Below, piece after piece: positions 23,815-43,785 of a stretch of 64,000 bases of DNA; positions within the stretch are counted from its first letter, which is position 1; each line of letters opens with the position of its first letter. The stretch comes from an uncultured Pseudomonadales bacterium. GTDB lineage: Bacteria > Patescibacteriota > Microgenomatia > UBA1400 > PJMF01. The stretch lies in NCBI GenBank assembly GCA_964437755.1, contig CAYTIA010000004.1, positions 11,687-75,686 on the forward strand, given 5' to 3'. Below the pieces are notes generated by a model. That model did no database searches, was not told the origin of the DNA, and worked only from the letters and a program-made list of their open reading frames with translations. The translations under genes and the position numbers were made by a program.

Positions 23815-23855
23815 TTCAAAAAAAACATTAATAACATCAATCATCAATCTAAAAT

Positions 23856-24869: not shown

Positions 24870-24882
24870 TAATCACCAATAA

Positions 24883-26572: not shown

Positions 26573-27007
26573 TTATTCTTTTTTCTCTTCAGTCTTTGTT
26601 TCCTCAGCCTTGACTTCTTCAGCCTCTTTGGTTGGAGCCTGACTCTCTGTTTCTGCTACAGGTGCTTCTTCCTTAACTTCTTCAACTTTTTCTTCTTTAG
26701 CTTGTTTTGCTTCTTCTTTTTTTGCTAGCTGTTTTTTTGAAAGCTTTTTCTTTTTTTCTGGAAAACCTTTTCCAGCTTTAGCAACTTCGTAAAGATAGGC
26801 AACTGTTTCAGTAGGTTGAGCTCCCTTAGTAATCCAAGAGTCATACTTTTTAATATCTAGTTCTAAAACTTTTGGAGTTTGCATTGGAGCGTAGTATCCA
26901 ATCATCTCAACATATGAGCCATCGCGTTTATCACGAGCCTCATTAATCACTATTCTATAGTGAGGTTGATTTTTCTTTCCTAATCGAGTGAGTTTAATCT
27001 TGAGCAT
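26573..27007 (-). CDS. rpsP: 30S ribosomal protein S16 with a Lys/Glu-rich C-terminal extension
   Basis: N-terminus MLKIKLTRLGKKNQPHYRIVINEARDKRDGSYVE is canonical S16. The last 60 aa or so are KE-rich low complexity. Confidence 0.85.
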   Translation of the reverse strand: MLKIKLTRLGKKNQPHYRIVINEARDKRDGSYVEMIGYYAPMQTPKVLELDIKKYDSWITKGAQPTETVAYLYEVAKAGKGFPEKKKKLSKKQLAKKEEAKQAKEEKVEEVKEEAPVAETESQAPTKEAEEVKAEETKTEEKKE

Positions 27008-27059
27008 AGAAATTCTTTTTTTCTTTTGTTAATTATAAATAATAACTGAATCAGCAATT

Positions 27060-27743
27060 TTATACCAAACTCTCACTTTTCTCAAACTTAGTTAGTGCCT
27101 GAGTTGCAGCTTGTTGCTGAGCAACCTGTTTGCTGTTGCCAGTTCCCAAACCCGCAACCTCTCCTTTAACCTTCACCGACACAGTAAATACTTTTGCATG
27201 ATCTGGACCCTGCTCATCTATCAACTCATACACTGGTGCCTCTATACCTTGTGCTTGCAATAATTCTTGAAGGGCGCTTTTTGAGTCCTTGTACAATTTT
27301 TTTTCTTTGATAACCTCAAACTTTGGGGTCAAGACTTTTTCTATAAATGAGATAACAACATCTATACCCTGATCTAAATATAAAGCTCCCACCACTGCCT
27401 CAAAGGTATCAGCCAGCAAGCTTATATTTTCTCTTCCGCCACCAGCTTCTTCACCTTTACTCAAAAACAATTTTTCTCCTAATCCAAGTTCTGTAGCTAC
27501 TTGGGCTAAAGTTTCAGTTCTAACCAAAGCACTACGATAGGCTGTTAGTGTTCCTTCGGGTTGGTCAGGGAATTTTTCAAACAAAAAGTTTGTGATTACT
27601 AACTCCAACACTGCATCTCCTAAAAACTCTAAACGCTCGTTTGAAATCGTTGAAGATGTGCCAGAGATACTAGGTTCATTCAAGGCGCTACGATGGGTGA
27701 GAGCAGTAGTAAATAAACTTAAATTTTTGAATTTTGGAAGCAT
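27060..27743 (-). CDS. rnc: ribonuclease III
   Basis: 227 aa. RNase III signature ERLEFLGDAVL and a C-terminal dsRBD. Confidence 0.9.
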   Translation of the reverse strand: MLPKFKNLSLFTTALTHRSALNEPSISGTSSTISNERLEFLGDAVLELVITNFLFEKFPDQPEGTLTAYRSALVRTETLAQVATELGLGEKLFLSKGEEAGGGRENISLLADTFEAVVGALYLDQGIDVVISFIEKVLTPKFEVIKEKKLYKDSKSALQELLQAQGIEAPVYELIDEQGPDHAKVFTVSVKVKGEVAGLGTGNSKQVAQQQAATQALTKFEKSESLV

Positions 27744-27748
27744 ATTTC

Positions 27749-28180
27749 TTATTTCTTCTTTTCTACCAGTAATTTCCCCAAAACTCCATTAACAAATCTT
27801 GAGGAGCTTTCAGATCCAAGCTCTTTAGCTAATTCTACCGCCTCATCAATTAAAACCTTTATCGGAGTATTTTTGGTTACTGATTCCCAATAAATCACTC
27901 GCAAAATTGCCAAATCAACTCGATTAATTTCTGAAAGAGGGCGCTCAGGAGCGTGTTGCTTTATCTTTGTATCAATCTCTTCTAGATTATCCAATATAGT
28001 TAAAACTTCAGGGTGAAGCTCTTGATCAAACGGCAACCGATTAGTTAAATTTGACACTGCCTTTTCAACCTTGCCATCCAGCTCACTAAAAGTAGCTGCA
28101 AATAGATCTTGGACCAATCTTTGACGCCGAAAATGACGTTGATCCGAAGCCACAACTGATGACGAAGACTGAGTTGTCAT
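27749..28180 (-). CDS. nusB: transcription antitermination factor NusB
   Basis: 143 aa. NusB-family helical-domain pattern (R..AR..A.Q.L...). A 5-nt gap separates it from rnc. Confidence 0.7.
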   Translation of the reverse strand: MTTQSSSSVVASDQRHFRRQRLVQDLFAATFSELDGKVEKAVSNLTNRLPFDQELHPEVLTILDNLEEIDTKIKQHAPERPLSEINRVDLAILRVIYWESVTKNTPIKVLIDEAVELAKELGSESSSRFVNGVLGKLLVEKKK

Positions 28181-28558: not shown

Positions 28559-28588
28559 TTGAGAATTTATAGATAAACGGCTTATAAT
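28559..28588 (+). promoter_or_regulatory. candidate promoter (TTGAGA-18-TATAAT) for the 739-aa surface-protein gene
   Basis: Hexamers at 28559..28564 and 28583..28588. The ATG at 28656 is about 67 nt downstream. Confidence 0.25.
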
Positions 28589-28655: not shown

Positions 28656-30875
28656 ATGAGTAATAAACAAGAGTTATTAAATCAATACCAAGCATCTGGT
28701 TTAGTAAGAGAAAGAATAGAAAGAGAACAGAAACATGATCGAGATTTAGACTACGGTGGTTTTTTAATAGTTTTGAATAATAAATTACGAATAACTGGTT
28801 TAAATACCAATCGAGAAAACCCAAGTCATGCTGAGATTCTGTCTGAGCAGCTGACAACGATCAAGAATGTTTTTGATCAGTTATATATCGCTGGGCATCT
28901 ACTGCGCCTTTCTCCAGAACAAGCCCAACTTTTTACGCAGTTTAAGTCTAACGCTGAACAGTTAAGCTATATTATTACTGCTATTAGTCCAGAAGACTTA
29001 AATCATCGCAATCTTTCGGTTTTTGCTAACATGCTAAAACCAACAATGTTTGCTGATTACGATCAGATTCTAAGAGTCTCAGAAATCGGTCAAATTCAAG
29101 ATCCCAGAGAAAGACGACAGGCTATTACTCAACTAATGAGTGATCTAGGCATTGAGCGAGCTAGCATCAAAAAACTTTCTATTTTTTTTGAAACACAACC
29201 AACTTTGGCACAGGTTAGAGAACAGGTCGCCAAACAGCAGTGGCTAAAAAGATTATTCTGGAAATCAGCCTCAACCCTTGGTTTATTACTATTGATTTCA
29301 GGCTGTGTGGCAACAACAACAGAAACAACCCCGCCACCAGGAACACCTGTATCAGAAGTTACTCCTGAGCCAACTAATACTCCAGACGTTGTTATAACTC
29401 CAACTGCTGCTCCAACCATTGTTACACCTCCAGAACAAGGTGGCTTAATTACCCCAGACCAAGAGGCTGAAACGGAGAGGATAATTGCTCAATTTATTCT
29501 TAAACAACAAGCTCGCCAACTAATTCCAGGTATAAAATTACTCGGAATAGACGAGTGGGTTAGTGCTCCGACTCAACCAGAAGATAGCGGTTATTATCCC
29601 TTTGCTTGGAAAAGAATAGGAGACTCAATTGCATTAGAAGAGATTGGCACTCATAAAGATAACTCTAGACACTATATATTTTTTGATTACAAAAATAACA
29701 GAATAGCTTTAGTTAAAGCTGATGCAAACACTTATGTTACTGTTGATCCTAATGGCAACTGGGTTGTTCTTGATGCAGATAACCAACCTGCTCAAGAAAT
29801 TATATGGCAAGAAGTAAGTCAAGAACAAAATCAAAATCCAGAAAAACCAATAAGTGAAATCTACGTAGCAAAAGACAGATTATATAATGAGATATCCATA
29901 GAGTTACTTCAATCTTTTGGTTTTGAGAGTTGGGAAAAAGTTGGAGAAGAACAAGCAGCGTGGCTAAAATCTATTTTGGCTGGAACAGATTTGAACGGAT
30001 TACAGATAGAGATACAATCAGCCATTAATAATGGAACATTTTACGATGCTGATGGCAACATAAGCGTAGAATGGAAAAATCGAGGACTGGAGCTAATGAT
30101 GGGAGTAATGAAAGACAAGTTTAAAGCAGAGTTAGACACATTAACAGATCCAGAAGCAGAAGGAGTAGACTATCCAAGATTATTGGAGACAGTGATTACT
30201 ATAAATGGCAAAACCATCCCCATTAGCCTACACCATGGTTCTGCTTTGTATAATTTATACAGAGATAAAAGTGATTGGGATTATACTACATCTGTACCAG
30301 GTTTAACTTCAACATATCTCAATCCAGATTTTCAAACAGGAGTATCCACTATATTCGAACAATTTTTTGTAGATCGAGAACTAGATATTAAAGCCGGTTT
30401 TGCTGAAAGCTCGTTTGTCGTTAGCGATGGAAAAATAGTTAATGTTGGAGAAGTTACCGATGTAAAAAGAGTTGGAGTAGAGAATATAGATAAAATCGAG
30501 TTTTTCAGACTACATGAGCAAGAACTTTGGGTATTGGAATATATGCAAAGAGATATTACTCCCTATGCTTTAAATCCTCATTACGATGGAGATGCGGCTA
30601 CTCCATTTATTGATTTCATTTGGTTTATAAGAAACAAAACATTGACCTTTGTGCATGTTCAACCAGGAAACATAGATAAGGAGGGAGAGGCTTGGATATT
30701 GTATGCAGTTTTCAGAGACTCTCTTGCACAAGCTATGGCAAATTTATCATTTGCTCTAAGAGCTGAATCACTCGAATCAAGAGTTGCAACCAATGAATAT
30801 TTAGACTTTTATATTGGTCTAAAGGGTCAAGTTAGAAAAGAGATAGATGCAATTAAAGCAAAAGAAACTCAATAA
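28656..30875 (+). CDS. large bitopic membrane/surface protein: cytoplasmic N-domain, transmembrane helix with lipobox-like LISGC, Pro/Thr linker, and an extracellular domain of about 480 aa
   Basis: 739 aa. Transmembrane helix STLGLLLLISGC is followed by TTTETTPPPGTPVSEVTPEPTNTP...AAPTIVTPPEQGG. I recognise no family. Confidence 0.6.
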   Translation: MSNKQELLNQYQASGLVRERIEREQKHDRDLDYGGFLIVLNNKLRITGLNTNRENPSHAEILSEQLTTIKNVFDQLYIAGHLLRLSPEQAQLFTQFKSNAEQLSYIITAISPEDLNHRNLSVFANMLKPTMFADYDQILRVSEIGQIQDPRERRQAITQLMSDLGIERASIKKLSIFFETQPTLAQVREQVAKQQWLKRLFWKSASTLGLLLLISGCVATTTETTPPPGTPVSEVTPEPTNTPDVVITPTAAPTIVTPPEQGGLITPDQEAETERIIAQFILKQQARQLIPGIKLLGIDEWVSAPTQPEDSGYYPFAWKRIGDSIALEEIGTHKDNSRHYIFFDYKNNRIALVKADANTYVTVDPNGNWVVLDADNQPAQEIIWQEVSQEQNQNPEKPISEIYVAKDRLYNEISIELLQSFGFESWEKVGEEQAAWLKSILAGTDLNGLQIEIQSAINNGTFYDADGNISVEWKNRGLELMMGVMKDKFKAELDTLTDPEAEGVDYPRLLETVITINGKTIPISLHHGSALYNLYRDKSDWDYTTSVPGLTSTYLNPDFQTGVSTIFEQFFVDRELDIKAGFAESSFVVSDGKIVNVGEVTDVKRVGVENIDKIEFFRLHEQELWVLEYMQRDITPYALNPHYDGDAATPFIDFIWFIRNKTLTFVHVQPGNIDKEGEAWILYAVFRDSLAQAMANLSFALRAESLESRVATNEYLDFYIGLKGQVRKEIDAIKAKETQ

Positions 30876-30998
30876 ATTAACAGTAGTAAATTGGTAAAAA
30901 GCTCACTACATTTACTTAGTTTGCTTTTAAAAGTTTTAAGATAGATATTTTTCATCAGATTATTCCTTTTTGAAAAAAAATCGGCTATAGTAAGACTG

Positions 30999-33900
30999 AT
31001 GAATATCCTTAGACATAAAAATTCTAAAAAAATCTTCGTAGTCTCTTTGTTATTAATGTTGTTTTTCCTAGGGTGGTCTTTGGGTAAAAACAAAATTAGA
31101 GATAAATATTCAACTAATTCAGAGTTATCTTCTACAAACAGCACAACTTGGATACTTGAATCAGAAATAGACAACTTGCACTGCTATCAGGCAAATTGTA
31201 TTAACCTAGATTTAATAGAGCAGCTATTGCTTGATTTGGGCTATGATCAAAAAAACCCAACATTTAAGATGTTGGGAGGATCGAAATTAATAAAACCATC
31301 ACATATAAAGGTTAGTTTCATAGATATAAACAAAGTCAGCACAGAAGTTGTTGAAAGCCTGGAATATGTAATGACAGAAGAGAATAAAATATATTCAGGA
31401 ATAGCAATGACAGAAGACGATGACCAAGTAGAGGTAAAACTGTATTTAGATACAATAAAAGCAAGTGAATATTTAACAGATGAATACGACTATAACAAAG
31501 CTTTCGAACTGCCGTTCTTACAATTTCTAATTAATGCCAACTATACAGACACAGAGACCAACTTAGGAAAAGTAGCAGATAGACTTAATCAAATACATAA
31601 AAAATATTTTACCAACAAACAAGAAAAGTTGTTTAATCTCGAATTCAAAGAAGAGACAAGCTGGTTAAATCTAAAAAAAATAATAAGCAAGTTAATACAA
31701 CCTGTACAAGCAGCTTGTGATGGAATGTTAACTTGCGGAACTCAAAATGTTTATCCTCAATGCGAGGATGGAAGTTATTGTAGGTCAGATCAAGTGGGTT
31801 TAGAGTGCGGATGCAAAGTTCCAAAAGTAGACGGAGAGTGTCCAGAAGGTCAAGAAGCCTATTGTCGCGTTGAAGAAGATTGCACCCCAAATGGTAATTT
31901 TGAACCCTGTTCTTGGTCTGGAACAGAAAGTGCTTGCAATGCTAAACAACATTGTGGAGCTTGCCCGATAAGTGGAAGTGGTTGTTCTTGGTCTGGGAGT
32001 CCACCACCCCCAACTCTTCCCCCTGGACCAACTCTTCCGCCAGGAGTACCAACTCCGACTGATTATCAACCACCTCCGAGTCAATGCCCAGGAGTATGTT
32101 GCTGGGGCAGTTGCTGGGGCGAAACTTTATCCCCAAACACTTGCGACTCTCCCCAAAACTGTTGTTCAGCATGCCAACCAGCTTGGCCATCACAAGGTAT
32201 AGTTAGAGTTTGGGTATACTATGATTCAAATAAAAACTATATGCACGATGAGGGTGATCAATCCCTGCCTTCAGAAATCACAAATGGTGATGCTAGAGTA
32301 CAGCTTCATTTTCCTCAGCATAATGGAACAAATACGCACTACAAAACTATTCAAAATTCATTGGGTGGATGGGGAGCAATAGCAAGCCTAAGCAATTGTG
32401 TTGGCAACTGGGATAATTTTGGAGGGTGTGGAAGTGAAAACGAAGTTTGTTGCAGCCCACCAGGACCAATCACATTTTTTAGAACTTGCTGGGGAGTATG
32501 CAACCCAGAGGGAAGCGGGCACTCTTTTTATGACGGTTGGGGTGCAGGAGGAGGTTTGACAGCCGCTGATGTAATATGGGCACCATATTTATTCTGGAAT
32601 TATTATAATGCTAGCAAAATGGCTTCATTTGACTGGGGAGGATATGTTGGACCAAGTGGAGCACAAAATGCAACAGCACAAATTAGTATCATTGATCTTC
32701 CGCCAGAATATGAAGTAAATCTCATAAGATTTTCAAAACCCATTCCTTCAGAAAGTGAGATGGCTAATTTAGATATATACAAAAGTGCCAATACCCTTTA
32801 CCACACTAACTCTATTAGCAAAACCATCGAAACCGTTGGAGGGTGGCACGTAACAACGGGATTATTTGTTATCGGGATTTCTCCAAAAAATGATCCTCCA
32901 GAAGCTGTTTATTCTCAAATAGTTTCAATTGATGATGACACTAGCGTTACTGATCAAATGTGCTTAGCTAGTAACTCAGCTAAAAAAATAGAAATTGCTT
33001 CTTTTTTTAGTGACCCAGATGAGCCAATTTCTCAAAATTTAGTAAAAAATGGCAGTTTTGAGAATGGTACTGCTAACTGGACGCTTCAAAACATTAATGG
33101 CAACACCGACGGCTCTGCTTCTATTGTTACTGGAACTAATGCCTATTACGGTCCCTCAGCTCTTAGAACCAATGGCGGTGCTTCAACTGGTTACTTCAGA
33201 GCCATCCAAGCTGTTAACCTTGAACCAAATACCAACTACTCATTTACCGCTACCTACAAAAGTGGTACTACAGCCACCAATCCAAGATTGGGGGCTCATG
33301 TTTACTGCCATCCTTCAGATGGAAGTCCTGCAATTGGACAACCAGCCATGAGTATCACCTTTAGTCAAATTTATTCTGAATTCAAAACCGTTGCTAATTC
33401 ATTCACTACCACTACCTGTGCAGGACAATTTACTATCTATATTTTTTCAGATGCAGATCCCAACTCATGGATGACTCTTGATGGGGTGTTTTTACGCCAA
33501 GGCTCTCAAGTAGCTGAAATCTTTTCAGATATCAGCCGCTTTCAGATTAATTTAGAAAAACAAAACTTTCCAACAAATACTGAATTTAGTGGAGGTGACT
33601 GGCCCTTAAGATTGCAGGCTGTTCGTCTAAATAATATTAACATGAACAAATACCGCGCCTTTAATGGCACTGGAACTTCTGACGACACAATTAGTTATAG
33701 TTATGATTTTACAACCAATAGGTGGTATTTACCCTCAGATTCATTCATAGATCCAGATGTTTGTGTACCATGGTGCTGGCCACCGCCCGCATTAATACTT
33801 TCATCAAATCCTGCCACTGGAGCTTGGAATACTTATTTTCAATATGCTGGTGCCAACACCATTTTCGCTCGCTGGGTAGTTGAAGTTAATAGCTCGTTAC

Positions 33901-35351
33901 TTAGTGAGGGTCAATATCACGTCACAGCCTGGGTAGATGACTTTCTAGCTCAACAAGATGAACGCGCATCTGCTGGTGACCGCACTAAGATGACTTTAAC
34001 TTCGGGAGCCGCAAGTTATACTTGGCAAAGGTTCGGTTCTCTTGATGTAACCAGTCCCTTACTGACTGTTAACTTTATGGAGTCTGAGAACGACACTCCC
34101 TCTGGAGATTACTGTCCTTACAGAACTGGCACTGCTGTTACTCTGAATGGAGCTGCTGTAGGAGTAAGGCCATCTGGCGGTAGCACTTTCCAAAATTCAT
34201 CAATCAATAATATTTCAACTATAAACATCACTCCCAATACCTGTGCAGATACTTATGATGTTAGGCTAACTCTAAATCCAAGCGACGGTTATGTTTGTAA
34301 CTGCCAAATTGGAGCCAATCCCTATGAATGTGTTTATTATGATGTGCCAGCTACCTATTTGGGTAATGATCCAATTAATTTTTATCTCTTGGAGGTTGAC
34401 CTCACTAATAATGCTTGGTTTCAGAGCGTTGGTGGACAAATAACGGCTCTTGGCAACATTAGATCAAACGTTCCTTATAATGCCGCCACATCAGGTCCTT
34501 GTAATCAAGGAAATAACTGTTGGCCAGCCTTGATTACTTGGCTACCATGGAGTGGGGGAGCAGACTATGTTAATACCCCAGGTTTTCCTTTTGCTAGAAC
34601 AGGTGGCTCAATTAATACCCATAGTGATGGTGGAACCGCTTATGTTCATACCACCGATCAACATACTCAAAGCAATGATGGCCACGCCTCTGATAACTCA
34701 GCCATTCCTACAGAGTATAACTATCAGTACTTCTACAATAGATTTGGCTTTGAATATGACACAGCAGAAAATCAGTTGGCTAGCGGAGCTCAGCCGAGTC
34801 TGAGCTCTGGTTTAAATATTCGATTTGCTTCTAGCGATCTAACTATTTCTGAACCTTGGCACATATCTGCTGGTGAACAACTAATTGTGTTTGTTGATGG
34901 CAATCTTACTCTTAGCGATACCACTGGAGATAGAAGGTTAATTAGAGCCGATGCTGGAAGTTATCTTGCTTTTATTGTATCTGGTAATATTTCTATCAAC
35001 TCAAATGTTGGCTATACGATTCCAAATACAAATCCAATTGTTTTTGCTCGTCCTGGAACCGTTAGCCCTAATGTAGAGGGCATTTATCTTGCTAATGGCA
35101 CATTGACAGTTGCCAGCAATGGCAATGCCTCTTTGCCTGACAAGAAGTTCATCGGAGCTGGCACTTTTGTGGGTTGGAGTGGAGTTAATTTAGCCAGATC
35201 TTTTGCTGATGGAGTTATTGGCATGGCTTGGCACAATTTTAATCCTACCGAAACATTTATCTATCGACCAGATTTCTTACTCAACACACCATCTGTAATG
35301 AAAGAACCAATCCATGAATGGCGAGAGGTAGCTCCAAGAACCAGCAACTAA
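30999..35351 (+). CDS. giant (1450 aa) secreted/anchored Cys-rich surface protein with a CBM4/9-like carbohydrate-binding module and a beta-helix-like C-terminal region
   Basis: N-terminal signal anchor (IFVVSLLLMLFFLGWSLG). Cys-dense segments (CDGMLTCGTQNVYPQCEDGSYC...CGACPISGSGCSWSGS; CPGVCCWGSCWG...CCSACQ). Proline-rich linker PPPPTLPPGPTLPPGVPTPTD. CBM_4_9-like NGSFENGTANWTLQNING...YFRAIQAVNLEPNTNYSF. Confidence 0.7.
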   Translation: MNILRHKNSKKIFVVSLLLMLFFLGWSLGKNKIRDKYSTNSELSSTNSTTWILESEIDNLHCYQANCINLDLIEQLLLDLGYDQKNPTFKMLGGSKLIKPSHIKVSFIDINKVSTEVVESLEYVMTEENKIYSGIAMTEDDDQVEVKLYLDTIKASEYLTDEYDYNKAFELPFLQFLINANYTDTETNLGKVADRLNQIHKKYFTNKQEKLFNLEFKEETSWLNLKKIISKLIQPVQAACDGMLTCGTQNVYPQCEDGSYCRSDQVGLECGCKVPKVDGECPEGQEAYCRVEEDCTPNGNFEPCSWSGTESACNAKQHCGACPISGSGCSWSGSPPPPTLPPGPTLPPGVPTPTDYQPPPSQCPGVCCWGSCWGETLSPNTCDSPQNCCSACQPAWPSQGIVRVWVYYDSNKNYMHDEGDQSLPSEITNGDARVQLHFPQHNGTNTHYKTIQNSLGGWGAIASLSNCVGNWDNFGGCGSENEVCCSPPGPITFFRTCWGVCNPEGSGHSFYDGWGAGGGLTAADVIWAPYLFWNYYNASKMASFDWGGYVGPSGAQNATAQISIIDLPPEYEVNLIRFSKPIPSESEMANLDIYKSANTLYHTNSISKTIETVGGWHVTTGLFVIGISPKNDPPEAVYSQIVSIDDDTSVTDQMCLASNSAKKIEIASFFSDPDEPISQNLVKNGSFENGTANWTLQNINGNTDGSASIVTGTNAYYGPSALRTNGGASTGYFRAIQAVNLEPNTNYSFTATYKSGTTATNPRLGAHVYCHPSDGSPAIGQPAMSITFSQIYSEFKTVANSFTTTTCAGQFTIYIFSDADPNSWMTLDGVFLRQGSQVAEIFSDISRFQINLEKQNFPTNTEFSGGDWPLRLQAVRLNNINMNKYRAFNGTGTSDDTISYSYDFTTNRWYLPSDSFIDPDVCVPWCWPPPALILSSNPATGAWNTYFQYAGANTIFARWVVEVNSSLLSEGQYHVTAWVDDFLAQQDERASAGDRTKMTLTSGAASYTWQRFGSLDVTSPLLTVNFMESENDTPSGDYCPYRTGTAVTLNGAAVGVRPSGGSTFQNSSINNISTINITPNTCADTYDVRLTLNPSDGYVCNCQIGANPYECVYYDVPATYLGNDPINFYLLEVDLTNNAWFQSVGGQITALGNIRSNVPYNAATSGPCNQGNNCWPALITWLPWSGGADYVNTPGFPFARTGGSINTHSDGGTAYVHTTDQHTQSNDGHASDNSAIPTEYNYQYFYNRFGFEYDTAENQLASGAQPSLSSGLNIRFASSDLTISEPWHISAGEQLIVFVDGNLTLSDTTGDRRLIRADAGSYLAFIVSGNISINSNVGYTIPNTNPIVFARPGTVSPNVEGIYLANGTLTVASNGNASLPDKKFIGAGTFVGWSGVNLARSFADGVIGMAWHNFNPTETFIYRPDFLLNTPSVMKEPIHEWREVAPRTSN

Positions 35352-35360
35352 TATCAAAAC

Positions 35361-35888
35361 ATGAAAATAAGTACTTCTCCGGCTCATAGTAGTAAAACCG
35401 GTTTTACTCTAATTGAAGTTTTAGTAATTTCTGGATTAACCGTGATAATTATGCTTAGCACAGTGAGCTTATTCATGACTTTTTTAATCAGCCAAGCCAG
35501 AATCACTCAAAAGCAACAGTTAAAAAATGCTGGGAACAGTGCATTAAAACAGATGACACAAGTTTTAAGAGAAGCAAAATCAATTAATCCCTGTAACCCT
35601 GCTTCGTCAAACAGTATTATGTTTACCGACATCAACAATAGAACTGGCAGTTATCAAAGAAGTATTTTTGATAACGGTAATTATGGAATTAACTATTCCA
35701 CTCAAGATGGTAGTAATTTTATTACTTCACAAGATATGAATATCATCTCTTTTACTTCTAACTGCTACACTAGTCAAGAATCTCAACTAGTTAAGATTAC
35801 TTTTGTTTTACAAAATCCAAGAATTCAAGGCCCCTCAAACGAACCCCTCAATCAAGAGTTTGGTGTAAATATTCAGTTAAGAAATTAA
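35361..35888 (+). CDS. prepilin-type (class III signal) pseudopilin/minor pilin
   Basis: 175 aa. Prepilin peptidase site KTG|FTLIEVLVISGLTVII. Lies 9 nt after the giant surface-protein gene on the same strand. Confidence 0.7.
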   Translation: MKISTSPAHSSKTGFTLIEVLVISGLTVIIMLSTVSLFMTFLISQARITQKQQLKNAGNSALKQMTQVLREAKSINPCNPASSNSIMFTDINNRTGSYQRSIFDNGNYGINYSTQDGSNFITSQDMNIISFTSNCYTSQESQLVKITFVLQNPRIQGPSNEPLNQEFGVNIQLRN

Positions 35889-35905: not shown

Positions 35906-36622
35906 CTACATCGCTTCTTGTCCCCCGCACTCCCAGTCACAGGTGATCTCATTGCATACCCAAGGATATCCTCCAATGCAATAACCACCCGGAGGAAGAC
36001 CTACACAACAAACAGATTCTGGTGTTGGAAAAAGGGTAATTGTTGGAACAGAAGTTGGGGGAACAGGGGTAGCTGTTGGCCCAACAGGCACAAACACCTC
36101 TGAATCATGGAGATTCTTTGCCAATTTAAAACTAGAATTTACAGAAACCTCATCGCCGACATCATTTAACCAGCTAATAATAATTTCAACACTAATTTCA
36201 TTAGCATCAACTACCACGGAAGCAACTTGTTTTATTTGTGCAGGAATATCTCCTGAAACCGCAACAAAAGGGCAATTTTCTCCCGTGGGCAATCCAGAAA
36301 ATACATTGTTGTTAACACCTGTTGAAAAGCTGTTAACACCATTAAGACAGTAAGTTCTTGTTTCTAACACCGAGCTTAATCCAGACCAACCCAAGATACT
36401 TCTTTCTTGACGAAAAAAATCTATTCTTGACTGAGCTAACTCTGAAGAATAATTTCTAACTCTAGCTTGAGAGTCAGACTTCATTGTATAAGTCATTAGA
36501 GTTGCCAAACCTACCATTACTAAAGCCAGAACTGTTCCTGAAACCAAAATCTCTAAAAGACTAAAGCCACTATCTTTGTTCAAGTATTCTTTTTCAATAA
36601 TTTTTTTCATTAATATTCCCAA
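35906..36622 (-). CDS. prepilin-type minor pilin with a C-terminal Pro/Thr linker and 6-Cys module
   Basis: 238 aa. DSG|FSLLEILVSG class III signal. C-terminus is PVGPTATPVPPTSVPTITLFPTPESVCCVGLPPGGYCIGGYPWVCNEITCDWECGGQEAM. Confidence 0.7.
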   Translation of the reverse strand: MGILMKKIIEKEYLNKDSGFSLLEILVSGTVLALVMVGLATLMTYTMKSDSQARVRNYSSELAQSRIDFFRQERSILGWSGLSSVLETRTYCLNGVNSFSTGVNNNVFSGLPTGENCPFVAVSGDIPAQIKQVASVVVDANEISVEIIISWLNDVGDEVSVNSSFKLAKNLHDSEVFVPVGPTATPVPPTSVPTITLFPTPESVCCVGLPPGGYCIGGYPWVCNEITCDWECGGQEAM

Positions 36623-36625
36623 TTG

Positions 36626-37288
36626 TTAATATACAGAAGACTCAATACATTCCCAAACACAAGTACTTGGATTACACCACCAATTCCAAGGACAAGCATC
36701 ATCAGGAATACCATGACAACATTGAGTAATTATATCTGTTGGTGCTGGAATAAAAGAAGTTGGAGATGGAGTCATTTGTTCGACTATTATCTCAATCTCT
36801 CCAGATCTCACTACTCCAGATCGATGAATCGAAATTGTCATTTCACCAAAGGCGCTCTCTAAAGATACTCCATTAGTTTCCGGTGCATCAGCAGGATCTA
36901 AATCATCATCAATTATCCCCGTTACTGCTCTCGAATAAAGAGTATTGGAACTTAAAAAACTTACGCCGCTTGATACTTTTAAAGTTCTTAATTCTTCAGG
37001 GCTTCCATTACTACCATCTAAACACCTGGGTTTGATCTCGATCACTCCCGTTCCATTGTCATTATAAAAATCAATCTGATAGGCTTCTAAACTAGTACAA
37101 CCTCTCATTTTGCCACTACGAGCAGAAATTTGGGCTGACTCAACTGCTTCTCGAACCAGCTCAGCTGCTTGTGTTAACTTTTGTCGATCATTAAAATTGA
37201 TATACCCAGAAATTCCCATTCCAAGTAAAAGTAATAAAATTGCTATTGATACCAATAATTCTATTAAAGAAAAACCTTTGTGATTCAT
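36626..37288 (-). CDS. prepilin-type minor pilin with a C-terminal Pro/Thr linker and 6-Cys module (paralogous C-terminus)
   Basis: 220 aa. KG|FSLIELLVSIAILLLLLG class III signal. C-terminus is TPSPTSFIPAPTDIITQCCHGIPDDACPWNWWCNPSTCVWECIESSVY. Confidence 0.7.
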   Translation of the reverse strand: MNHKGFSLIELLVSIAILLLLLGMGISGYINFNDRQKLTQAAELVREAVESAQISARSGKMRGCTSLEAYQIDFYNDNGTGVIEIKPRCLDGSNGSPEELRTLKVSSGVSFLSSNTLYSRAVTGIIDDDLDPADAPETNGVSLESAFGEMTISIHRSGVVRSGEIEIIVEQMTPSPTSFIPAPTDIITQCCHGIPDDACPWNWWCNPSTCVWECIESSVY

Positions 37289-37292
37289 TTTT

Positions 37293-37682
37293 TTATGGAT
37301 TGCTCAAAGTATAGGGATTAATTGCATTTGGATCTTCTAAGTTCACGCTAAGAGTAAAAGTTGAGGCAGTAGAGGAGTAGACATAAACATTGCTCCCTGG
37401 ATCTCTAAAACGTTCCACACCATCGCTTAAATAACCCTGAGTATTAAGATAGGTAACCACTCCATCAAAATTATAGCCTGTTGGATAGCTACCCACATCT
37501 GAACGATACAGCACCAGAGCTTGACGAACAGTTTCCAGATCGGCCTTACGCTTTGAATCTCGGCTTTTAATCGAGGCCGTTCTATAACTTATCACTCCTA
37601 TAGTAGTTAAGACAACAATGATCGTGGCAACTACTAGCAATTCAATCAGAGAGAAGCCATTTTTTGGTAATTTCTTTTTCAT
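37293..37682 (-). CDS. type IV pilin-like protein
   Basis: 129 aa. NG|FSLIELLVVATIIVVL class III signal. Confidence 0.7.
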   Translation of the reverse strand: MKKKLPKNGFSLIELLVVATIIVVLTTIGVISYRTASIKSRDSKRKADLETVRQALVLYRSDVGSYPTGYNFDGVVTYLNTQGYLSDGVERFRDPGSNVYVYSSTASTFTLSVNLEDPNAINPYTLSNP

Positions 37683-37688
37683 AATAAA

Positions 37689-38105
37689 CTATTGTAAGTT
37701 GGTAAGACAGTAATAACCACCACTTGATGCAAAGCCACAAGAATTATTTGATGAGTTACCATCGGTCCCATCAAGATCAGCGCAAACACAGTAACCGCCT
37801 GGAGCCCTTGCAACGCAAGTATATTCTGCACCAGCAGGAGCACCAGATGGAAAATAGGTGTTTGCTTTCATTGCTTCACAGCTTGAAGCAGTACTATAAG
37901 AACCATTATCAGCATAATACTGCTCAAAGCCATCTTGCATGGCTTTGACGTTGGCTCTACGCCTAGCATCTCGTGCCTTTCGTTGAGCAGAAGAGTAAGC
38001 CACCACACCAATTACCACCAAGATTGCAATAATGGCTATCACAACCAATAATTCCAAAAGAGAGAAGCCTGAAGACTTTTTTTTATTTTGTCGAAAAATT
38101 TTCAT
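37689..38105 (-). CDS. type IV pilin (paralog A)
   Basis: 138 aa. SSG|FSLLELLVVIAIIAIL. Shares ...AMQDGFEQYY... and C-terminal YTC..A.GGYCVCA with the next gene. Confidence 0.75.
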   Translation of the reverse strand: MKIFRQNKKKSSGFSLLELLVVIAIIAILVVIGVVAYSSAQRKARDARRRANVKAMQDGFEQYYADNGSYSTASSCEAMKANTYFPSGAPAGAEYTCVARAPGGYCVCADLDGTDGNSSNNSCGFASSGGYYCLTNLQ

Positions 38106-38121
38106 ATTTACAAATAAGTAA

Positions 38122-38565
38122 TTAAATTGGGTTGTATAAACTTGTCAAACAAAAATACTCTTGATCAGTAGCAGAACTATTCAGGTTTTCACATGAGGTA
38201 CCATCAGCATTGCCGTTGATAGTTTCTGTACGAGCGCAGACACAATAACCATAGGCTGCTGGCGTAGTGCAGGTATAGCTCATACCCGGCTTTGGATCGG
38301 TGGGAAACCCTCCGGGAAAATTGTCTTCATCAGCCATCATCGCAGCGCAGTTATAATTTCCATTTTCAAGATAATATTGCTCAAAACCTTGTTGAGCTGC
38401 CTTGATATCAGATTTTCTTCTTGAATCTCTACCTTTTTTTTGAGAAGAAGTTAATGAGGCAGTAAGTAAACCTAATAATATGGCAATTATCGAGATTACT
38501 ACCAATAGCTCTAGTAAAGTAAAGCCTTCATTTTTTTTATTGGACAGTTTTGTATGACAAATCAT
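38122..38565 (-). CDS. type IV pilin (paralog B)
   Basis: 147 aa. NEG|FTLLELLVVISIIAIL. Shares ...AAQQGFEQYY... and C-terminal YTC..AAYGYCVCA. Confidence 0.75.
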   Translation of the reverse strand: MICHTKLSNKKNEGFTLLELLVVISIIAILLGLLTASLTSSQKKGRDSRRKSDIKAAQQGFEQYYLENGNYNCAAMMADEDNFPGGFPTDPKPGMSYTCTTPAAYGYCVCARTETINGNADGTSCENLNSSATDQEYFCLTSLYNPI

Positions 38566-38578
38566 ATTTTTTATTAGA

Positions 38579-39574
38579 TTAATTAACCTTGACTATAACC
38601 AAGTTTTGCGGACTGTCATAGGACTCAATTTTACCCTCTTTAATTACTTTAAGTTTAGCATGATATTCACAACTAGCTGCTAAACATTGATATTGATGTT
38701 CAACCTGACCTCTCATGCCAACAAACTGTTCTTTTTTACCATCTCCAAAATCTAGCTCAACTTCAATTGACTCTTCCTCAATTTCATTTGAAAAAATGGT
38801 TTCAACTGAAGCAATGAACCTTTCCACAGGATCATCACTATCTAAATATCCTGTAAAACTAGTTTCAAGGCTCGGAGAAACAACGAAAGAAAAAACAACA
38901 GCTTGATTCTTTGAAACTTCTAAAATTCGATCAATTTTGTTGTAATATGGCTGAGTGCTAAAACTTAAAATAATTGGTCTATCCACACAAAACTCATTGC
39001 AATCTTGAGGACAATCAAGAGCCTCAAATTCCTGTAAACCCTGCCCAAGCTGCATGCTGGTATCACAACAAGAATAACCATAAGAAACACACTCGCTTGG
39101 AGGACCAGCAACCCCTGAAAAAACTGCGGGTTTACTAGAAGTAACTATTTCATCATCAAGAACTGTAACTGAACCAGTTCTTTTTAAAACAGTAAAATTC
39201 ATTCCTAATTCTTGACCCCAGCGAACACCAGACTTACCAGTTTGAACCATGACAAAAGGAGGTAGATCTTCTGTAATAACTTCAATTGGGGAATGCTCTC
39301 GCTGATTACAGACTACTTCCACCACATAAGAATTTGAGTCAGTAAATCTTAATTGAGTCACATGTACTATGCCTTTTTCATCCCGATCACTACCTTTAGA
39401 GGCACACTCTGTGGCATAGCTCTGAGTATGCTGAATATCCCTAACTTGTTTTAAGCTCTGCTTAACTTTTGAAGTTGTCATTGCCAGCATAACTTCACGG
39501 GTAATCAAAAATCCCAATCCCAAGACTAAAGCAAGAATAATTATTGAGGTTAATAAAGCTTTTATGACTCTCAT
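38579..39574 (-). CDS. pilus-cluster membrane-anchored Cys-rich protein of unknown function
   Basis: N-terminal transmembrane anchor (ALLTSIIILALVLGLGFLI), then an extracellular domain with CVSYGYSCCDTSM...DCPQDCNEFC. The ORF-track start (GTG at 39613) overlaps pilD by 43 nt. An internal ATG at 39574 overlaps the pilD TGA as ATGA, and I prefer that start (331 aa). Confidence 0.5.
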   Translation of the reverse strand: MRVIKALLTSIIILALVLGLGFLITREVMLAMTTSKVKQSLKQVRDIQHTQSYATECASKGSDRDEKGIVHVTQLRFTDSNSYVVEVVCNQREHSPIEVITEDLPPFVMVQTGKSGVRWGQELGMNFTVLKRTGSVTVLDDEIVTSSKPAVFSGVAGPPSECVSYGYSCCDTSMQLGQGLQEFEALDCPQDCNEFCVDRPIILSFSTQPYYNKIDRILEVSKNQAVVFSFVVSPSLETSFTGYLDSDDPVERFIASVETIFSNEIEEESIEVELDFGDGKKEQFVGMRGQVEHQYQCLAASCEYHAKLKVIKEGKIESYDSPQNLVIVKVN

Positions 39575-40464
39575 AATAGTTGCCAGTAAGCTTGCCAAAG
39601 ATCTGCTCCCCACGCTAGAGCAATTAAGGAACCTAACACTAAAAATGGACCGAATGAAATCATCTGACCAGTTTTAGCCCTGCGTGTTATTAATAAAATT
39701 ATGCCCCAAACTCCACCAATAATAAAGGTACAAAAAATTCCCACTGTTGCTAGTTTATAACCCAAAACCATTGCCAGAGGAAAAACTAGTTTTATGTCAC
39801 CCCAACCAAGACCATATTTTTTTAAGAAAAGCAAAGGAAGATAACGAAGCATCAAAAAAAATAATAATAAAAGTGTGGCAACAGCTAGATCATTGAAAAA
39901 AGATGCTTGGATATTAAACAGTTGTTCGCTCACAGCTTTCATCACTGCTACTAATCCCACTAACAAAACCAACTCATCAGGAATAATCATGTATTTTTGA
40001 TCAAAAAGTAATATCAACCAAAGAAAAATAATGAAGATAAGCAAAAAGAGAAAACTAAAAAGAGGATTGTTGAAATAAGCGGGTGTTGAGAGATGTAAAT
40101 AACCAACAAACACAAACAAAATACCTGTTAATAATTCTACCAAAGGATAATCCAAGCCAATCTTTATTTTACAAAAACGACATTTACCTCCTAACAACAG
40201 ATAAGAAAGCAAAGGAATGTTGTCATACCAGTGGATGTTTTTACCGCAACTCTGGCAATGTGATCGACCAGTTACCCAACTATTATTATTTAGGGATTTT
40301 TTTTGCTTTTTAACCAATACATCTTCGCTGTACTTTTCTTCAGATCGGTCAACAATCACCTTAAAAAAACTTCCAAAGAATAAACCAAACACAAATAAAA
40401 CTAAGTAAAAGAACAAAGGATAGTCGTAAAAAAATACAAAAGAATTAATTAGGGATTGAAACAT
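39571..40464 (-). CDS. pilD: prepilin peptidase (A24 family) PilD
   Basis: 297 aa. N-terminal CxxC...CxxC zinc motif (CQSCGKN...CRFCKIKI), polytopic membrane topology, catalytic Asp regions (LFDQKYMIIPD; GWGDIKL). Confidence 0.85.
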   Translation of the reverse strand: MFQSLINSFVFFYDYPLFFYLVLFVFGLFFGSFFKVIVDRSEEKYSEDVLVKKQKKSLNNNSWVTGRSHCQSCGKNIHWYDNIPLLSYLLLGGKCRFCKIKIGLDYPLVELLTGILFVFVGYLHLSTPAYFNNPLFSFLFLLIFIIFLWLILLFDQKYMIIPDELVLLVGLVAVMKAVSEQLFNIQASFFNDLAVATLLLLFFLMLRYLPLLFLKKYGLGWGDIKLVFPLAMVLGYKLATVGIFCTFIIGGVWGIILLITRRAKTGQMISFGPFLVLGSLIALAWGADLWQAYWQLL

Positions 40465-40503
40465 ATACTTAGTTTATCAAAATAGAGAAGGGGAAAGGTA
40501 AGC

Positions 40504-40531
40504 AAAAAAAGCCCCAGATTTTGTCTGGGGC
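40504..40531 (-). terminator. rho-independent terminator downstream of the major pilin gene
   Basis: On the minus strand there is a perfect 8-bp GC-rich stem (GCCCCAGA..TCTGGGGC) with a 5-nt loop, followed by UUUUUUU (the plus-strand A-run at 40504..40510). It lies about 30 nt after the pilin stop. Confidence 0.65.
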
Positions 40532-40560
40532 TAAAAATTTAATTTTATAACCTGCTTTTG

Positions 40561-41322
40561 TTATGGTAAGCAAACCATAGCTCCTGGGACATCTTTTAAA
40601 CCATCAAAAGTTTCTGTTGGATTGCAGATAAAGTTGGCAGCAGCTTCTTCTATATCAACTGGCAACCCGACTCCATAAGTATAATCTTCTCCTGGCTCAG
40701 CAGGGTCAGCGCATCTTTCTAGAGCTTGAGTGTCGAAGGCTCCAGATTGTGGCACAAAACAGACATATGTACTAGCACCAGGTAGACCATTATTATAAAG
40801 ATATAACGTTCTTCCAGCTCCGCTAGCAACTCTTCTAGTAAAACTTTCTTTCAGTTCTTGAGCACCCGCACAGTTTGCCACCCCCTCGCTACCGGTTGAT
40901 AGTCGAGTTAATATTGGACAGCCAGTGGCTGGAGGATCTTCCTGGGCAAATACATCACCAACCAACCAACCAAACATTCCTCCACCATTTAAGACAATAT
41001 TTGGAGTTGGTTCTTCAGGAACACCGCCCACAGCAGGAGTTGTCTCTGTTACCGGAACAGGATATCCGTCAGCATCCATAATGGCAATATTAGGATCATT
41101 GGCATCAATCTGCCAAGGGAAATAGCCCTGAAATGCATTGTATCGATCAATAGCACTCAACAACTGCTCTGCATCCGATTGCCTACCTGTGTCTCTACCT
41201 CTATTAATTTGCTCGATAGGATTAATTGCTGAAAGAACTGCAACTGCCAAAATACCAAGAATGGTAATGACGATCAACAGCTCGATCATGGTAAAACCTA
41301 ATTGACGATGGAGTCTTTTCAT
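40561..41322 (-). CDS. type IV major pilin candidate
   Basis: 253 aa. QLG|FTMIELLIVITILGILAVAV class III signal. It has its own strong terminator and elevated GC, which is consistent with high expression. It sits directly after pilC. Confidence 0.75.
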   Translation of the reverse strand: MKRLHRQLGFTMIELLIVITILGILAVAVLSAINPIEQINRGRDTGRQSDAEQLLSAIDRYNAFQGYFPWQIDANDPNIAIMDADGYPVPVTETTPAVGGVPEEPTPNIVLNGGGMFGWLVGDVFAQEDPPATGCPILTRLSTGSEGVANCAGAQELKESFTRRVASGAGRTLYLYNNGLPGASTYVCFVPQSGAFDTQALERCADPAEPGEDYTYGVGLPVDIEEAAANFICNPTETFDGLKDVPGAMVCLP

Positions 41323-41453
41323 ATTTCCTTTAATAATTTCTTTTAACTACTTATTAATAATTAACAGAAGTTCGGCAGAACTCCTATATCTAATTTATAA
41401 CAATTGAGCAGTTCAATGCAAGAGTCATTTCAAGATTAACAGATCAAAATCAC

Positions 41454-42656: not shown

Positions 42657-42679
42657 ATGTACAAAGATATAATCTTTAT

Positions 42680-43738: not shown

Positions 43739-43785
43739 ATGTTCGTCAAATAAGCTAATAATCTTTTATCATCTATTTATTTCTC

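Follow-up and report, generated by a model that had tools for sequence, protein, structure and literature searches.

The window, the 64,000-nucleotide stretch of DNA analysed here, contains a giant open reading frame of 1450 codons that ends nine nucleotides before a 175-residue reading frame on the same strand (Table 1). We refer to the downstream gene as geneD. The first-pass annotation had described a giant ORF followed by a prepilin-type ORF and placed the pair between ribosomal genes and the type IV pilus (T4P) cluster; its coordinates, gene structure and placement all hold. The T4P cluster, on the opposite strand, converges on the pair. Five pilin-like genes span 35906-38565, and a conserved 344-aa gene of the cluster has no assigned function. 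PilD (A24_N_bact and Peptidase_A24 domains), PilB, PilC and PilT are encoded at 39571-45615. The gene order of the cluster is the same in relatives, and its proteins are 67-97% identical to those of two close relatives, loci L001 and L002.

Table 1. Genes and protein regions at the locus, in window positions
Feature	Position	Strand	Description
PilM and PilO	23856-26270		Presumed PilN in between, without Pfam support
S16, RNase III, NusB	26573-28180	-	Neighbouring genes
geneA	28656-30875	+	739 aa; lipobox-like LLLISG↓C at aa 217, then Pro/Thr linker
Giant ORF	30999-35351	+	1450 aa
Giant ORF, aa 1-235	30999-31703	+	Signal anchor (aa ~9-31) and ~200-aa domain; corresponds to geneB, fused; hypervariable
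Giant ORF, aa 236-629	31704-32885	+	Remnant of geneC cleavage site, two Cys-rich blocks split by Pro linker, beta-sandwich-type region; hypervariable
Giant ORF, aa 630-1029	32886-34085	+	Conserved middle; CBM_4_9 (aa 679-818, nt 33033-33452) and ~210-aa domain without assignment
Giant ORF, aa 1030-1450	34086-35351	+	Family-defining C-module; beta-sandwich, Cys-bearing loop region, alpha-helix, short right-handed beta-solenoid
geneD	35361-35888	+	175-aa pseudopilin/minor pilin; 14-aa leader, KTG↓FTLIEV, Glu at +5; orthologue signature …SLFMTFLI
T4P cluster	35906-45615	-	Convergent; five pilins, 344-aa gene, PilD, 253-aa pilin, PilC, PilT, PilB (Pfam)

Upstream of the giant gene on the same strand is geneA, which has no Pfam or NCBIfam match and with which the unit probably begins. 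The best promoter-like site lies upstream of it (28559-28588, score 11/12). We found no terminator-like site in the gap between the giant gene and geneD, and in relatives this gap ranges from overlapping stop and start codons to a few tens of nucleotides.

Every feature that the first-pass annotation listed for the giant protein is present: a signal anchor, cysteine blocks, a proline linker, a CBM_4_9-type domain and a C-terminal beta-helix. The anchor is the sole hydrophobic segment, with no further TM-like window, and the protein carries no prepilin motif. We noticed a possible cleavage site for the anchor, SLG↓K, which is a guess; an uncleaved anchor would keep the protein from departing on a pilus tip. 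The two Cys-rich blocks hold 22 cysteines within 165 residues (aa 236-400, 13%), six more follow at aa 467-501, and the 29-residue linker occupies aa 334-362 (SPPPPTLPPGPTLPPGVPTPTDYQPPPSQ). The CBM_4_9 match (PF02018) covers profile positions 1-132 of 136 with 32.3 bits against a gathering score of 25.9 (E 1.4e-7), and it recurs in orthologues and in the protein P0016. The first-pass annotation had set its adhesin reading against a known S-layer or enzyme family, and domain annotation (Pfam, NCBIfam and PDB sequence searches) placed the giant protein in neither.

Two genes that relatives keep apart, geneB and geneC, are fused in the giant ORF. In these relatives, geneB encodes a membrane-anchored protein of ~166-227 residues (227 in L002, 194 in L010, 193 in L011 and 166 in L008) and overlaps or abuts geneC, which begins with a cleavable signal peptide (…HQVSA↓QECAGD in L002, …ELVQA↓CSCG in L010). 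The giant ORF keeps a remnant of this cleavage site near residue 236 (…IQPVQAA↓CDG), and L001 has the fusion as well. Residues 1-235 have no detectable similarity to their counterparts in L001 or L002, and the geneB family of the L010 type is likewise undetectable in them.

Comparison with L001 and L002, whose neighbouring proteins are 67-97% identical, divides the giant protein in two. Residues 630-1450 are 68-86% identical, whereas residues 1-629 are essentially unalignable. The boundary is sharp: similarity begins at residue 630, with 68% identity over aa 630-1029 and 85-86% over the C-terminal module. For the first 629 residues, tblastn returned no match in L001 and a single weak one in L002 (73 aa, 38% identity, E 5e-4). 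At the DNA level, similarity to L001 is lost from position 28880, within geneA, and is also absent over aa 236-629 of the giant gene. GeneA is 44% identical to its L001 counterpart over aa 8-258 only, so that the first ~258 residues are its conserved portion in this relative and the remainder belongs to the hypervariable island; a gene of similar position and architecture occurs in L001, L010 and L011, with sequence homology in L001 only. L001 and L002 themselves share 95-96% DNA identity that breaks off abruptly inside the giant gene, which indicates cassette replacement. Judged from these alignments, the first ~630 residues of the giant protein are a strain-specific, replaceable cassette, and aa 236-629 are its probable ligand-facing head. 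Both the fusion and the cassette are additions to the first-pass annotation.

The pair had also been described as richer in GC than the housekeeping genes. This is true of the giant gene (40.3%, compared to 35.7% for the window) but not of the pseudopilin gene (32.8%), and the PBP gene also reaches 40.2%. The excess in the giant gene sits in its Cys/Pro/Gly-rich part (44.2%), where it reflects amino-acid composition and so provides no evidence of foreign origin.

Although the first-pass annotation recognized no described family for the protein, its C-terminal ~420 residues define a large one. They match 919 cluster representatives at E ≤ 1e-3, 607 of them at E ≤ 1e-10. With clusters drawn at 50% identity, the family comprises at least 919, all of them unannotated. 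Proteins with this C-module thus form a large unnamed CPR family, defined in the present analysis. Nearly all of the 150 matches listed have the module at their very C-terminal end, below N-terminal parts that vary from 50 to 1200 residues, and none of the 150 best family members fuses it to a pilin. The family alignment contains invariant columns (C, W.Q, C….C, D.KFIGAGTFVGW, RPD and W.E, besides single C, W, Q, G, R, F and P) and invariant charged residues (D352, K354, R371, R394, D396 and E414 in module numbering), and the module ends in a conserved tail, F.YRPDF..N.P..MK......WRE. The N-terminal parts of 43 long members carry CBM_4_9, F5/8 type C, Laminin_G_3, Big_2, fn3 and TSP1 domains, all of which serve binding or adhesion, and no catalytic domain.

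An AlphaFold2 model of aa 1030-1450 (pLDDT 82, pTM 0.83) shows a beta-sandwich, a helix and then a short beta-solenoid at approximately aa 1270-1400, in support of the earlier description of this region as beta-helix-like. Its best fold match in the PDB is a weak one, to the ice-binding DUF3494 beta-helix 4nu2 (Foldseek probability 0.97, E 0.039, TM 0.45). The DUF3494 fold resembles the model in having a beta-solenoid with a flanking helix; however, the TM-scores are low (0.25 and 0.45) and the rmsd is 12 Å. Sub-threshold matches to DUF7305 fall on the solenoid rungs in six of 36 family members (best E 4.7e-5), but DUF7305 is itself an uncharacterised family of which we found no mention in the literature. 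Pfam has no match in the C-module of the giant protein and assigns the protein to neither DUF.

Glycoside hydrolases are the proteins to which CBM_4_9 modules are typically attached. Together with the predicted right-handed solenoid and the invariant charged residues of the C-module, the CBM_4_9 domain could mark a secreted polysaccharide-active enzyme, in which the CBM targets a glycan and the solenoid is a small catalytic domain resembling a lyase or hydrolase, like that of tailspike depolymerases, with which to breach a host wall or degrade a polymer. One relative even has a weak Peptidase_M23 match at the geneB position. We nevertheless regard an enzyme as improbable. Neither the giant protein nor 79 family members match an enzyme in Pfam, NCBIfam or PDB sequence searches, and most members of the family have no CBM at all. 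The solenoid has only ~5-6 rungs, its fold matches to pectate-lyase-like proteins are insignificant (1ogm, E 3.2; a viral 'pectate lyase superfamily' protein, E 0.7), and the ice-binding fold that it matches best is non-enzymatic.

The second gene of the pair encodes a pilin. GeneD has a class III signal peptide (MKISTSPAHSSKTG↓FTLIEVLVISGLTVIIML…) with cleavage before FTLIEV and the glutamate at +5, and AlphaFold2 gives it a classic pilin structure, with a helix at residues 17-70 followed by six to seven beta-strands (pLDDT 80-96). Sequence profiles see less of it. The Pfam N_methyl match stays below threshold (17.3 vs 21.2 bits), and NCBIfam minor-pilin models, among which its N-terminus weakly resembles GspH/J/K and ComG proteins, cover only the first ~65 residues and score under their cutoffs. 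It is not a recent duplicate of the other pilins in the window. The cognate prepilin peptidase and assembly machinery are present in the window: the T4P cluster supplies what geneD needs of both.

A weak resemblance to GspH/J/K and ComG minor pilins, next to PilB/C/D machinery, would also be expected of a T2SS-like pseudopilus that has the giant protein as its substrate or piston-associated cargo, which the T4P ATPases and the pseudopilin would export or release and not display. This seems to us very hard to credit. CPR cells are thought to have no outer membrane, so a T2SS-type piston would have no obvious barrier to cross, and the scanned ORFs of the window include no secretin. The giant protein has a Sec-type signal of its own, and the presence of the retraction ATPase PilT together with PilM/N/O shows that the T4P is genuinely retractile.

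The pairing of the giant gene with geneD is conserved well beyond chance. GeneD has 12 homologues at 40-95% identity, and in all eight distinct contigs reached through them a C-module gene lies immediately upstream on the same strand, with both genes converging on the minor-pilin operon. The first-pass annotation had proposed to look for such a neighbour in relatives, and these contigs have one. Starting from the C-module gives a broader picture. In a census of 79 C-module loci, the orthologous pseudopilin is directly downstream in 37, within 2.5 kb on the same strand in seven and nearby in another arrangement in about eight, so that about two-thirds of the loci have it. The linked state follows the phylogeny of the C-module (nearest-neighbour concordance of 0.81, compared to 0.58 under permutation), and three sequence clusters of the module are linked at 39 of 42 loci. 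Approximately 25 of the 79 loci have no pseudopilin, other pilin or T4P gene within 5 kb, implying that the module can work without an adjacent pilin.

Those pilin-less loci give support to a different arrangement, a cell-envelope adhesin that operates independently of the pilus. Here, the protein would sit on the cell body, the C-module would be a CPR-specific anchoring or sorting domain that attaches to the wall, to an S-layer or to a partner in the membrane, for instance geneB, and the pseudopilin would be co-regulated but separate, or a membrane-embedded anchor outside any filament. Variable adhesive parts on a C-terminal anchoring domain are a common design (SLH, CWB2, T9SS CTD). One third of the family lies outside T4P loci, and there the geneB-geneC pair and the tail motif persist, the motif being kept equally in pilin-linked and pilin-less proteins. 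Moreover, geneB and geneC overlap in the way that translational coupling would lead one to expect, and the two are fused in the window and in L001, which by Rosetta-stone logic suggests joint action at the membrane. When the C-module and geneD were modelled as a fused chain in a crude AlphaFold2 test with an unpaired alignment, the pTM was 0.64 compared to 0.83 for the module alone. This crude model contained no sign of docking, with no new strand and a module C-terminal tail below pLDDT 50, and it had no significant fold match in the PDB.

On the other hand, the C-module adjoins the pseudopilin in all eight contigs and the linkage is stable within subfamilies, a pattern that would be hard to account for if the two had no functional connection. 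The variation of geneB follows that of the head and not that of the handle, which makes geneB an unlikely partner for the conserved module. Pfam and NCBIfam detected no SLH, LPXTG, LysM or S-layer family domain in the giant protein, and among 36 relatives a single one has an anammox S-layer match, which falls outside the shared C-module. Given the missing docking signal and the third of the family outside pilus loci, the envelope-anchored adhesin stays a serious rival, although on balance we think it somewhat unlikely.

The reading that we favor, with belief and doubt about evenly weighed, is that the giant protein is a type IV pilus-associated adhesin of a CPR bacterium related to Microgenomates, similar to PilY1 but not homologous to it. 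The protein would be exported via its N-terminal signal anchor, and its C-terminal ~420-residue module, the proposed docking handle, would associate with geneD, its dedicated pseudopilin. After processing by PilD, geneD may join the minor-pilin priming or tip complex of the adjacent T4P machine. That complex would then carry the outward parts of the giant protein, the CBM_4_9 domain, which may bind glycans, and the disulfide-rich head. Together with the geneB domain fused to it and the extracellular portion of geneA, the head would make up a ~4-kb cassette that is swapped wholesale between close strains. Such swapping is what one would expect if the cassette touches a host or substrate surface that itself varies, and host recognition may be the selective force behind it.

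A wider proposal, which we offer as a doubtful speculation, is that geneA, geneB-geneC and geneD represent an undescribed class of host-recognition complexes, either pilus-borne or pseudopilin-anchored. In such complexes, a constant handle and a private minor pilin would carry a recombining receptor-binding cassette of ~4 kb. The class would occur widely among Microgenomates, Parcubacteria and the CPR lineages related to them, and the cassette would set the host range of the epibiont much as the swapping of tail fibres does in phages.

The sole genetic study of CPR pili describes the host-binding mechanisms of these bacteria, outside a few cultivated Saccharibacteria, as 'largely unknown' (PMC11623550). 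The locus is a concrete and widely distributed candidate for how ultrasmall CPR/Patescibacteria find and bind hosts. With the conserved C-module as query, any CPR genome can be searched, the private pseudopilin connects the subfamily found in the window with the pilus, and the hypervariable head has sharp bounds that would allow comparison across strains and the hosts that co-occur with them. If the pilus link is true, the family would be a second answer, structurally unrelated to the first, to the task that PilY1 performs of fixing a large adhesin to a pilus, and it could help to predict from metagenomes which hosts are bound. If the link is false, the family is still a large set of surface proteins of the CPR that share a C-terminal anchoring module not described before.

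A close parallel is PilY1/PilC of the type IVa pili of Pseudomonas, Neisseria and Myxococcus, for which a role in the priming or tip complex has been proposed (PMC7541494, PMC13190605). Like the giant protein, PilY1/PilC are large non-pilins with a Sec-type signal that are encoded with minor pilins. They combine a conserved C-terminal domain with a variable and sometimes Cys-rich N-terminal adhesive part, much as the conserved module and the variable head are combined here, beside a dedicated pilin. Membership in the PilY1 family can be rejected, as Pfam detected no PilY1/Neisseria_PilC beta-propeller at E ≤ 1, the AlphaFold2 model is a beta-sandwich plus beta-solenoid, and no PilY1 structure is among the Foldseek matches. 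The giant gene and geneD also form a separate, convergent unit outside the minor-pilin operon and come with an additional membrane-anchored partner, geneB, which is fused in this genome. The beta-strand complementation signal is absent from our crude model.

In monoderm and competence T4P, minor pilins such as PilB (vWA) and PilC (lectin) of Streptococcus sanguinis and ComZ of Thermus deliver a functional binding module. These graft the module onto the pilin chain, whereas here the two are separate genes. The tapirins of the monoderm Caldicellulosiruptor are non-catalytic carbohydrate-binding proteins encoded beside a T4P locus, with a C-terminal domain of unusual structure (bioRxiv 10.1101/359786). 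In tapirins, however, the C-terminal domain is the one that binds, while the C-module is conserved and presumably not the ligand-binding part. We also rejected the tapirin family (NCBIfam NF051896) itself: it does not match the giant protein, it matches geneD only in the N-terminal helix (14.5 bits against a 600-bit cutoff), and no tapirin structure appears among the fold matches of the C-module.

Within the CPR, large exported, Cys-rich and strain-variable proteins have been proposed to serve attachment in Peregrinibacteria (PMC4736985); compared by description, that report defines no such C-module, pseudopilin linkage or cassette boundaries. A precedent is provided by PilX1 and PilX2 of Saccharibacteria (TM7x T4P-1 and T4P-2), T4P-locus proteins with accessory domains and without PilD signals that have been proposed as lectin-like tip adhesins (PMC11623550). 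By their description, these are pilin-like and lollipop-shaped, with a jelly-roll or a seven-bladed propeller as the head, whereas the giant protein lacks a pilin helix, is three- to fivefold larger and has a different conserved module. What they have in common with it is to be Patescibacteria proteins encoded at T4P loci, with large lectin-like accessory domains and a proposed glycan-binding role in host attachment, and a pilX2 mutant is impaired in host binding (PMC11623550).

ORF calls place the giant gene and the pseudopilin gene where the first-pass annotation had them, closely spaced on one strand between the S16-side genes and the main type IV pilus (T4P) cluster; the remainder of the window consists of housekeeping genes. 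The assignment of the downstream protein as a prepilin-type pseudopilin also holds. Its N-terminus reads MKISTSPAHSSKTG/FTLIEV (slash, cleavage site) with Glu at +5, and its AlphaFold2 model is a classic pilin; Pfam N_methyl and the NCBIfam minor-pilin models match the N-terminus only, all under cutoff.

Features of the window and protein identity to two relatives' loci, L001 and L002
Feature	Position	Strand	Description	Identity to L001/L002
PilX_N protein, PilM, presumed PilN, PilO	23017-26270	+	PilN without Pfam support	
S16, RNase III, NusB	26573-28180	-		
geneA, upstream of giant gene	28656-30875	+	739 aa	L001: alignable over first ~258 aa only (44%), rest hypervariable; L002 contig: unalignable C-terminal part only
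Giant ORF	30999-35351	+	1450 aa	
Giant protein, aa 1-629				tblastn: none to L001; one weak 73-aa match to L002 (38%, E 5e-4)
Giant protein, aa 630-1029				68%
Giant protein, aa 1030-1450			C-module	85-86%
Pseudopilin ORF (geneD)	35361-35888	+	175 aa; starts 9 nt past TAA of giant ORF	71-74%
T4P cluster	35906-45615	-	Five pilins, conserved 344-aa gene, PilD, 253-aa pilin, PilC, PilT, PilB; convergent on gene pair	
344-aa ORF	38579-39613	-	Between PilD and the five minor pilins	
Flanking housekeeping and T4P proteins				67-97%

The two ORFs share a reading frame, with TAA plus 9 nt between them (window 35349-35363; L001 9989-10003; L002). In L010, another relative's locus, they overlap out of frame (position 8990), so the shared frame is not conserved and read-through is unlikely. 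The T4P genes themselves form two groups approximately 10 kb apart, PilX_N protein/PilM/presumed PilN/PilO on the plus strand and PilB/T/C/D with the pilins on the minus strand. S16/RNase III/NusB and the putative adhesin unit separate them, and L010 has the same split. The conserved 344-aa ORF overlaps the PilD ORF by 43 nt and lacks a Pfam match. It is 87% identical in L001 and L002, and all related loci have an equivalent (315-331 aa) at this position; it could represent a T4P component not yet described.

Every N-terminal and central feature first ascribed to the giant protein was found: a signal anchor (hydrophobic aa ~9-31, with no second such segment), Cys-dense blocks (22 Cys in aa 236-400 and 6 in aa 467-501), a 29-aa Pro-rich linker (aa 334-362) and a Pfam CBM_4_9 domain (aa 679-818; 32.3 bits against a gathering score of 25.9). 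The proposed elevation in GC content is true of the giant gene (40.3%, compared to 35.7% for the window) but not of the pseudopilin gene (32.8%). Because the excess is confined to the Cys/Pro/Gly-rich part, it reflects composition, and we rejected foreign origin as its explanation.

The first-pass annotation recognized no described family for the whole protein. Indeed, no named family matches it, S-layer and enzyme families included, but it is not an orphan. With the full-length protein as query, a word-index homology search came back empty, and aa 630-1450 retrieved only two proteins, a shortfall caused by saturation of the candidate list, which low-complexity Pro/Cys/Thr words appear to flood. 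When aa 251-1450 were instead searched exhaustively with HMMER, 1.84 billion representatives yielded 919 relatives at E<=1e-3, of which 607 pass E<=1e-10. Among the matches listed, almost all are restricted to aa ~1030-1447, and in proteins 450-1600 aa long they stop at most a few residues short of the C-terminus. The C-terminal ~420 aa therefore define a large unnamed family. Pfam, NCBIfam and PDB sequences offer no match to this module apart from sub-threshold DUF7305 matches, which 6 of 36 members show on the rungs of the solenoid; NCBIfam scans of the 36 gave nothing consistent, PDB searches with the module profile and the whole giant protein gave nothing relevant, and ten family members are either labeled "hypothetical protein" or left nameless in their source annotation.

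An AlphaFold2 (AF2) model of the module, built from a 36-sequence alignment (pLDDT 82, pTM 0.83), opens with a beta-sandwich, continues through a loop region where two Cys are invariant, then a helix and a short beta-solenoid, and closes with a tail that is conserved yet of low confidence. The solenoid agrees with the beta-helix-like C-terminus proposed at first reading. The closest solved structure, an ice-binding/DUF3494 beta-helix, is a weak match (E 0.039, TM 0.25/0.45). A variant member (1025-1035 aa; L008 1013-4090, L028 3198-6305) carries the module mid-protein, where it is cut off after FIGAGTFVGW…RSF and gives way to a Pro/Thr linker and then to a C-terminal domain of ~160 aa that is unrelated; its loci have PilM/N/O nearby and no nearby pseudopilin. 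Two other members, P0035 and P0040, have a long Gly-rich tail in place of the module end (Pfam Gly_rich_2 in one long member), indicating that the C-terminal cap is not universal.

Outside the module, the 43 long members scanned have mostly Cys-rich N-termini without domain assignment. Pfam identified CBM_4_9 (three members), F5/8 type C (two), Big_2, fn3, Laminin_G_3, TSP1, DUF4215 and CarboxypepD_reg among them, and no catalytic domain; that the giant protein is an enzyme seems unlikely.

We examined how closely the module is tied to the pseudopilin from both directions. The pseudopilin has 12 detectable homologues (40-95% identity). The contigs of six of these, plus two later-found loci that also bear the pseudopilin, gave eight distinct loci, Microgenomates bacterium 39_7 among them. 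In all eight, a C-module gene lies immediately 5' of the pseudopilin on the same strand, and the convergent minor-pilin/PilD/PilC/PilT/PilB cluster comes next. The census from the module covered 80 metagenome and 6 genome loci (the latter titled Pacebacteria, Parcubacteria and Microgenomatus), 79 with enough downstream sequence. An orthologous pseudopilin lies directly 3' of the module gene in 37 of the 79, within 2.5 kb on the same strand in seven, and nearby in another arrangement in about eight; it is absent from about 25. Such a protein accompanies the pseudopilin at every locus found through the pseudopilin; the converse does not hold, as the module also occurs at loci that lack the pseudopilin. 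In L011, a Parcubacteria relative, a 369-aa ORF with the Fic motif HPFSDGNGRTTR (4622-5731) lies between the two genes.

Linkage is phylogenetically structured: nearest neighbors in the module phylogeny agree in linkage with a concordance of 0.81, compared to 0.58 under permutation, and three sequence clusters are 39/42 pseudopilin-linked. Within 5 kb, the pseudopilin-less loci also yielded no other pilins or T4P genes. They do keep an ORF for a membrane-anchored protein of ~190 aa, which runs into the 5' end of the module gene.

In L002, L010, L011 and others, the unit runs geneA (565-840 aa), geneB (~166-227 aa), geneC and geneD, the pseudopilin. There, geneB has an N-terminal transmembrane segment and geneC its own cleavable signal peptide. 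In the window and L001, geneB and geneC form a single ORF that retains the former geneC cleavage site (…IQPVQAA/CDG and …IPKAQA/QGG, respectively). The segment ahead of this site has lost its hydrophobicity in the window, suggesting that export of the window protein depends on the geneB anchor. GeneA of the window has a lipobox-like LLLISG/C at residue 217, some 200 aa from the N-terminus, then a Thr/Pro linker; it has no Pfam or NCBIfam match. Since jackhmmer did not connect window geneA or the N-terminal domain to their positional equivalents in distant relatives, the equivalence of geneA and geneB there is one of position and architecture. In L093, the geneB-position ORF (427-999; 190 aa, membrane-anchored) overlaps a 1243-aa module gene and weakly matches Peptidase_M23, a hint that peptidoglycan may be a substrate of certain geneB proteins.

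Conservation across the unit is mosaic, as the identities in the table illustrate. At the DNA level, window and L001 share no similarity over window 28880-32923. L001 and L002 are 95-96% identical throughout, save upstream of an abrupt breakpoint near codon 324 of the L001 gene. On that side, the two strains have unrelated versions of geneA, geneB and the first Cys block, and only one of them has geneB and geneC as a single ORF. Such whole-domain breakpoints exclude point hypermutation and, with no meaningful tandem repeats found, a repeat- or DGR-type mechanism. From these alignments, we infer that head variability is wholesale cassette replacement by recombination. A test for preferential contig breaks in the variable half of the gene gave 27 versus 11 within 1 kb but 38 versus 28 within 2 kb (p 0.27), counts confounded by a search pattern near the C-terminus, and we claim no preference. 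The records of L002/L007 and L008 (GCA_964596995.1, CAZCXA010000021.1) are titled "uncultured Pseudomonadales bacterium". Given the near-identity of L002 to L001 and a CPR-type locus common with Microgenomates 39_7, this title looks wrong.

What might such an architecture do? The constant C-terminal module would serve as a handle and the variable N-terminal head as the binding part. A Sec-type signal would carry the protein out of the cell, where the private minor pilin, encoded beside the minor-pilin operon, would pair with the handle protein. We consider the chances about even that the giant protein is such a pilus-presented adhesin. Several results argue against it. A crude AF2 run on an unpaired fused chain of module and pseudopilin gave no docking signal, pTM fell to 0.64 from that of the module alone, and the tail was disordered. 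One family member in three is encoded away from T4P loci, and in the window the protein carries a fused membrane anchor. Additionally, the conserved C-terminal tail motif is kept equally in pilin-linked and pilin-less members, which rules it out as a pilin-binding marker. A Rosetta-stone search of the 150 best family matches found no module-pilin fusion and no N-terminal prepilin motif. The main rival, an adhesin anchored in the envelope with the module as a CPR-specific anchoring domain, is possible but less probable, and T2SS-like cargo is very improbable.

Published precedents exist both for large CPR surface proteins that are Cys-rich and vary between strains (PMC4736985) and for lectin-like adhesins linked to T4P in Saccharibacteria (PMC11623550). 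In the literature, we found no account of the module as a family, of a pseudopilin dedicated to it, of fusion or fission of geneB, or of a replaceable head with sharp boundaries. A pilus-presented adhesin would resemble PilY1, the pilus tip-associated adhesin, with its minor pilins (PMC7541494, PMC13190605), in its constant C-terminus, variable head, Sec-type signal and minor pilin at hand; however, the propeller that defines PilY1 is missing. The PilX1/PilX2 adhesin candidates of Saccharibacteria (PMC11623550) offer a parallel design, and the T4P-proximal tapirins (bioRxiv 10.1101/359786) a parallel to the locus, but the tapirin model does not match the giant protein. With neither propeller nor any tapirin or other named-family match, the giant protein would work like the PilY1, PilX and tapirin systems without belonging to them.
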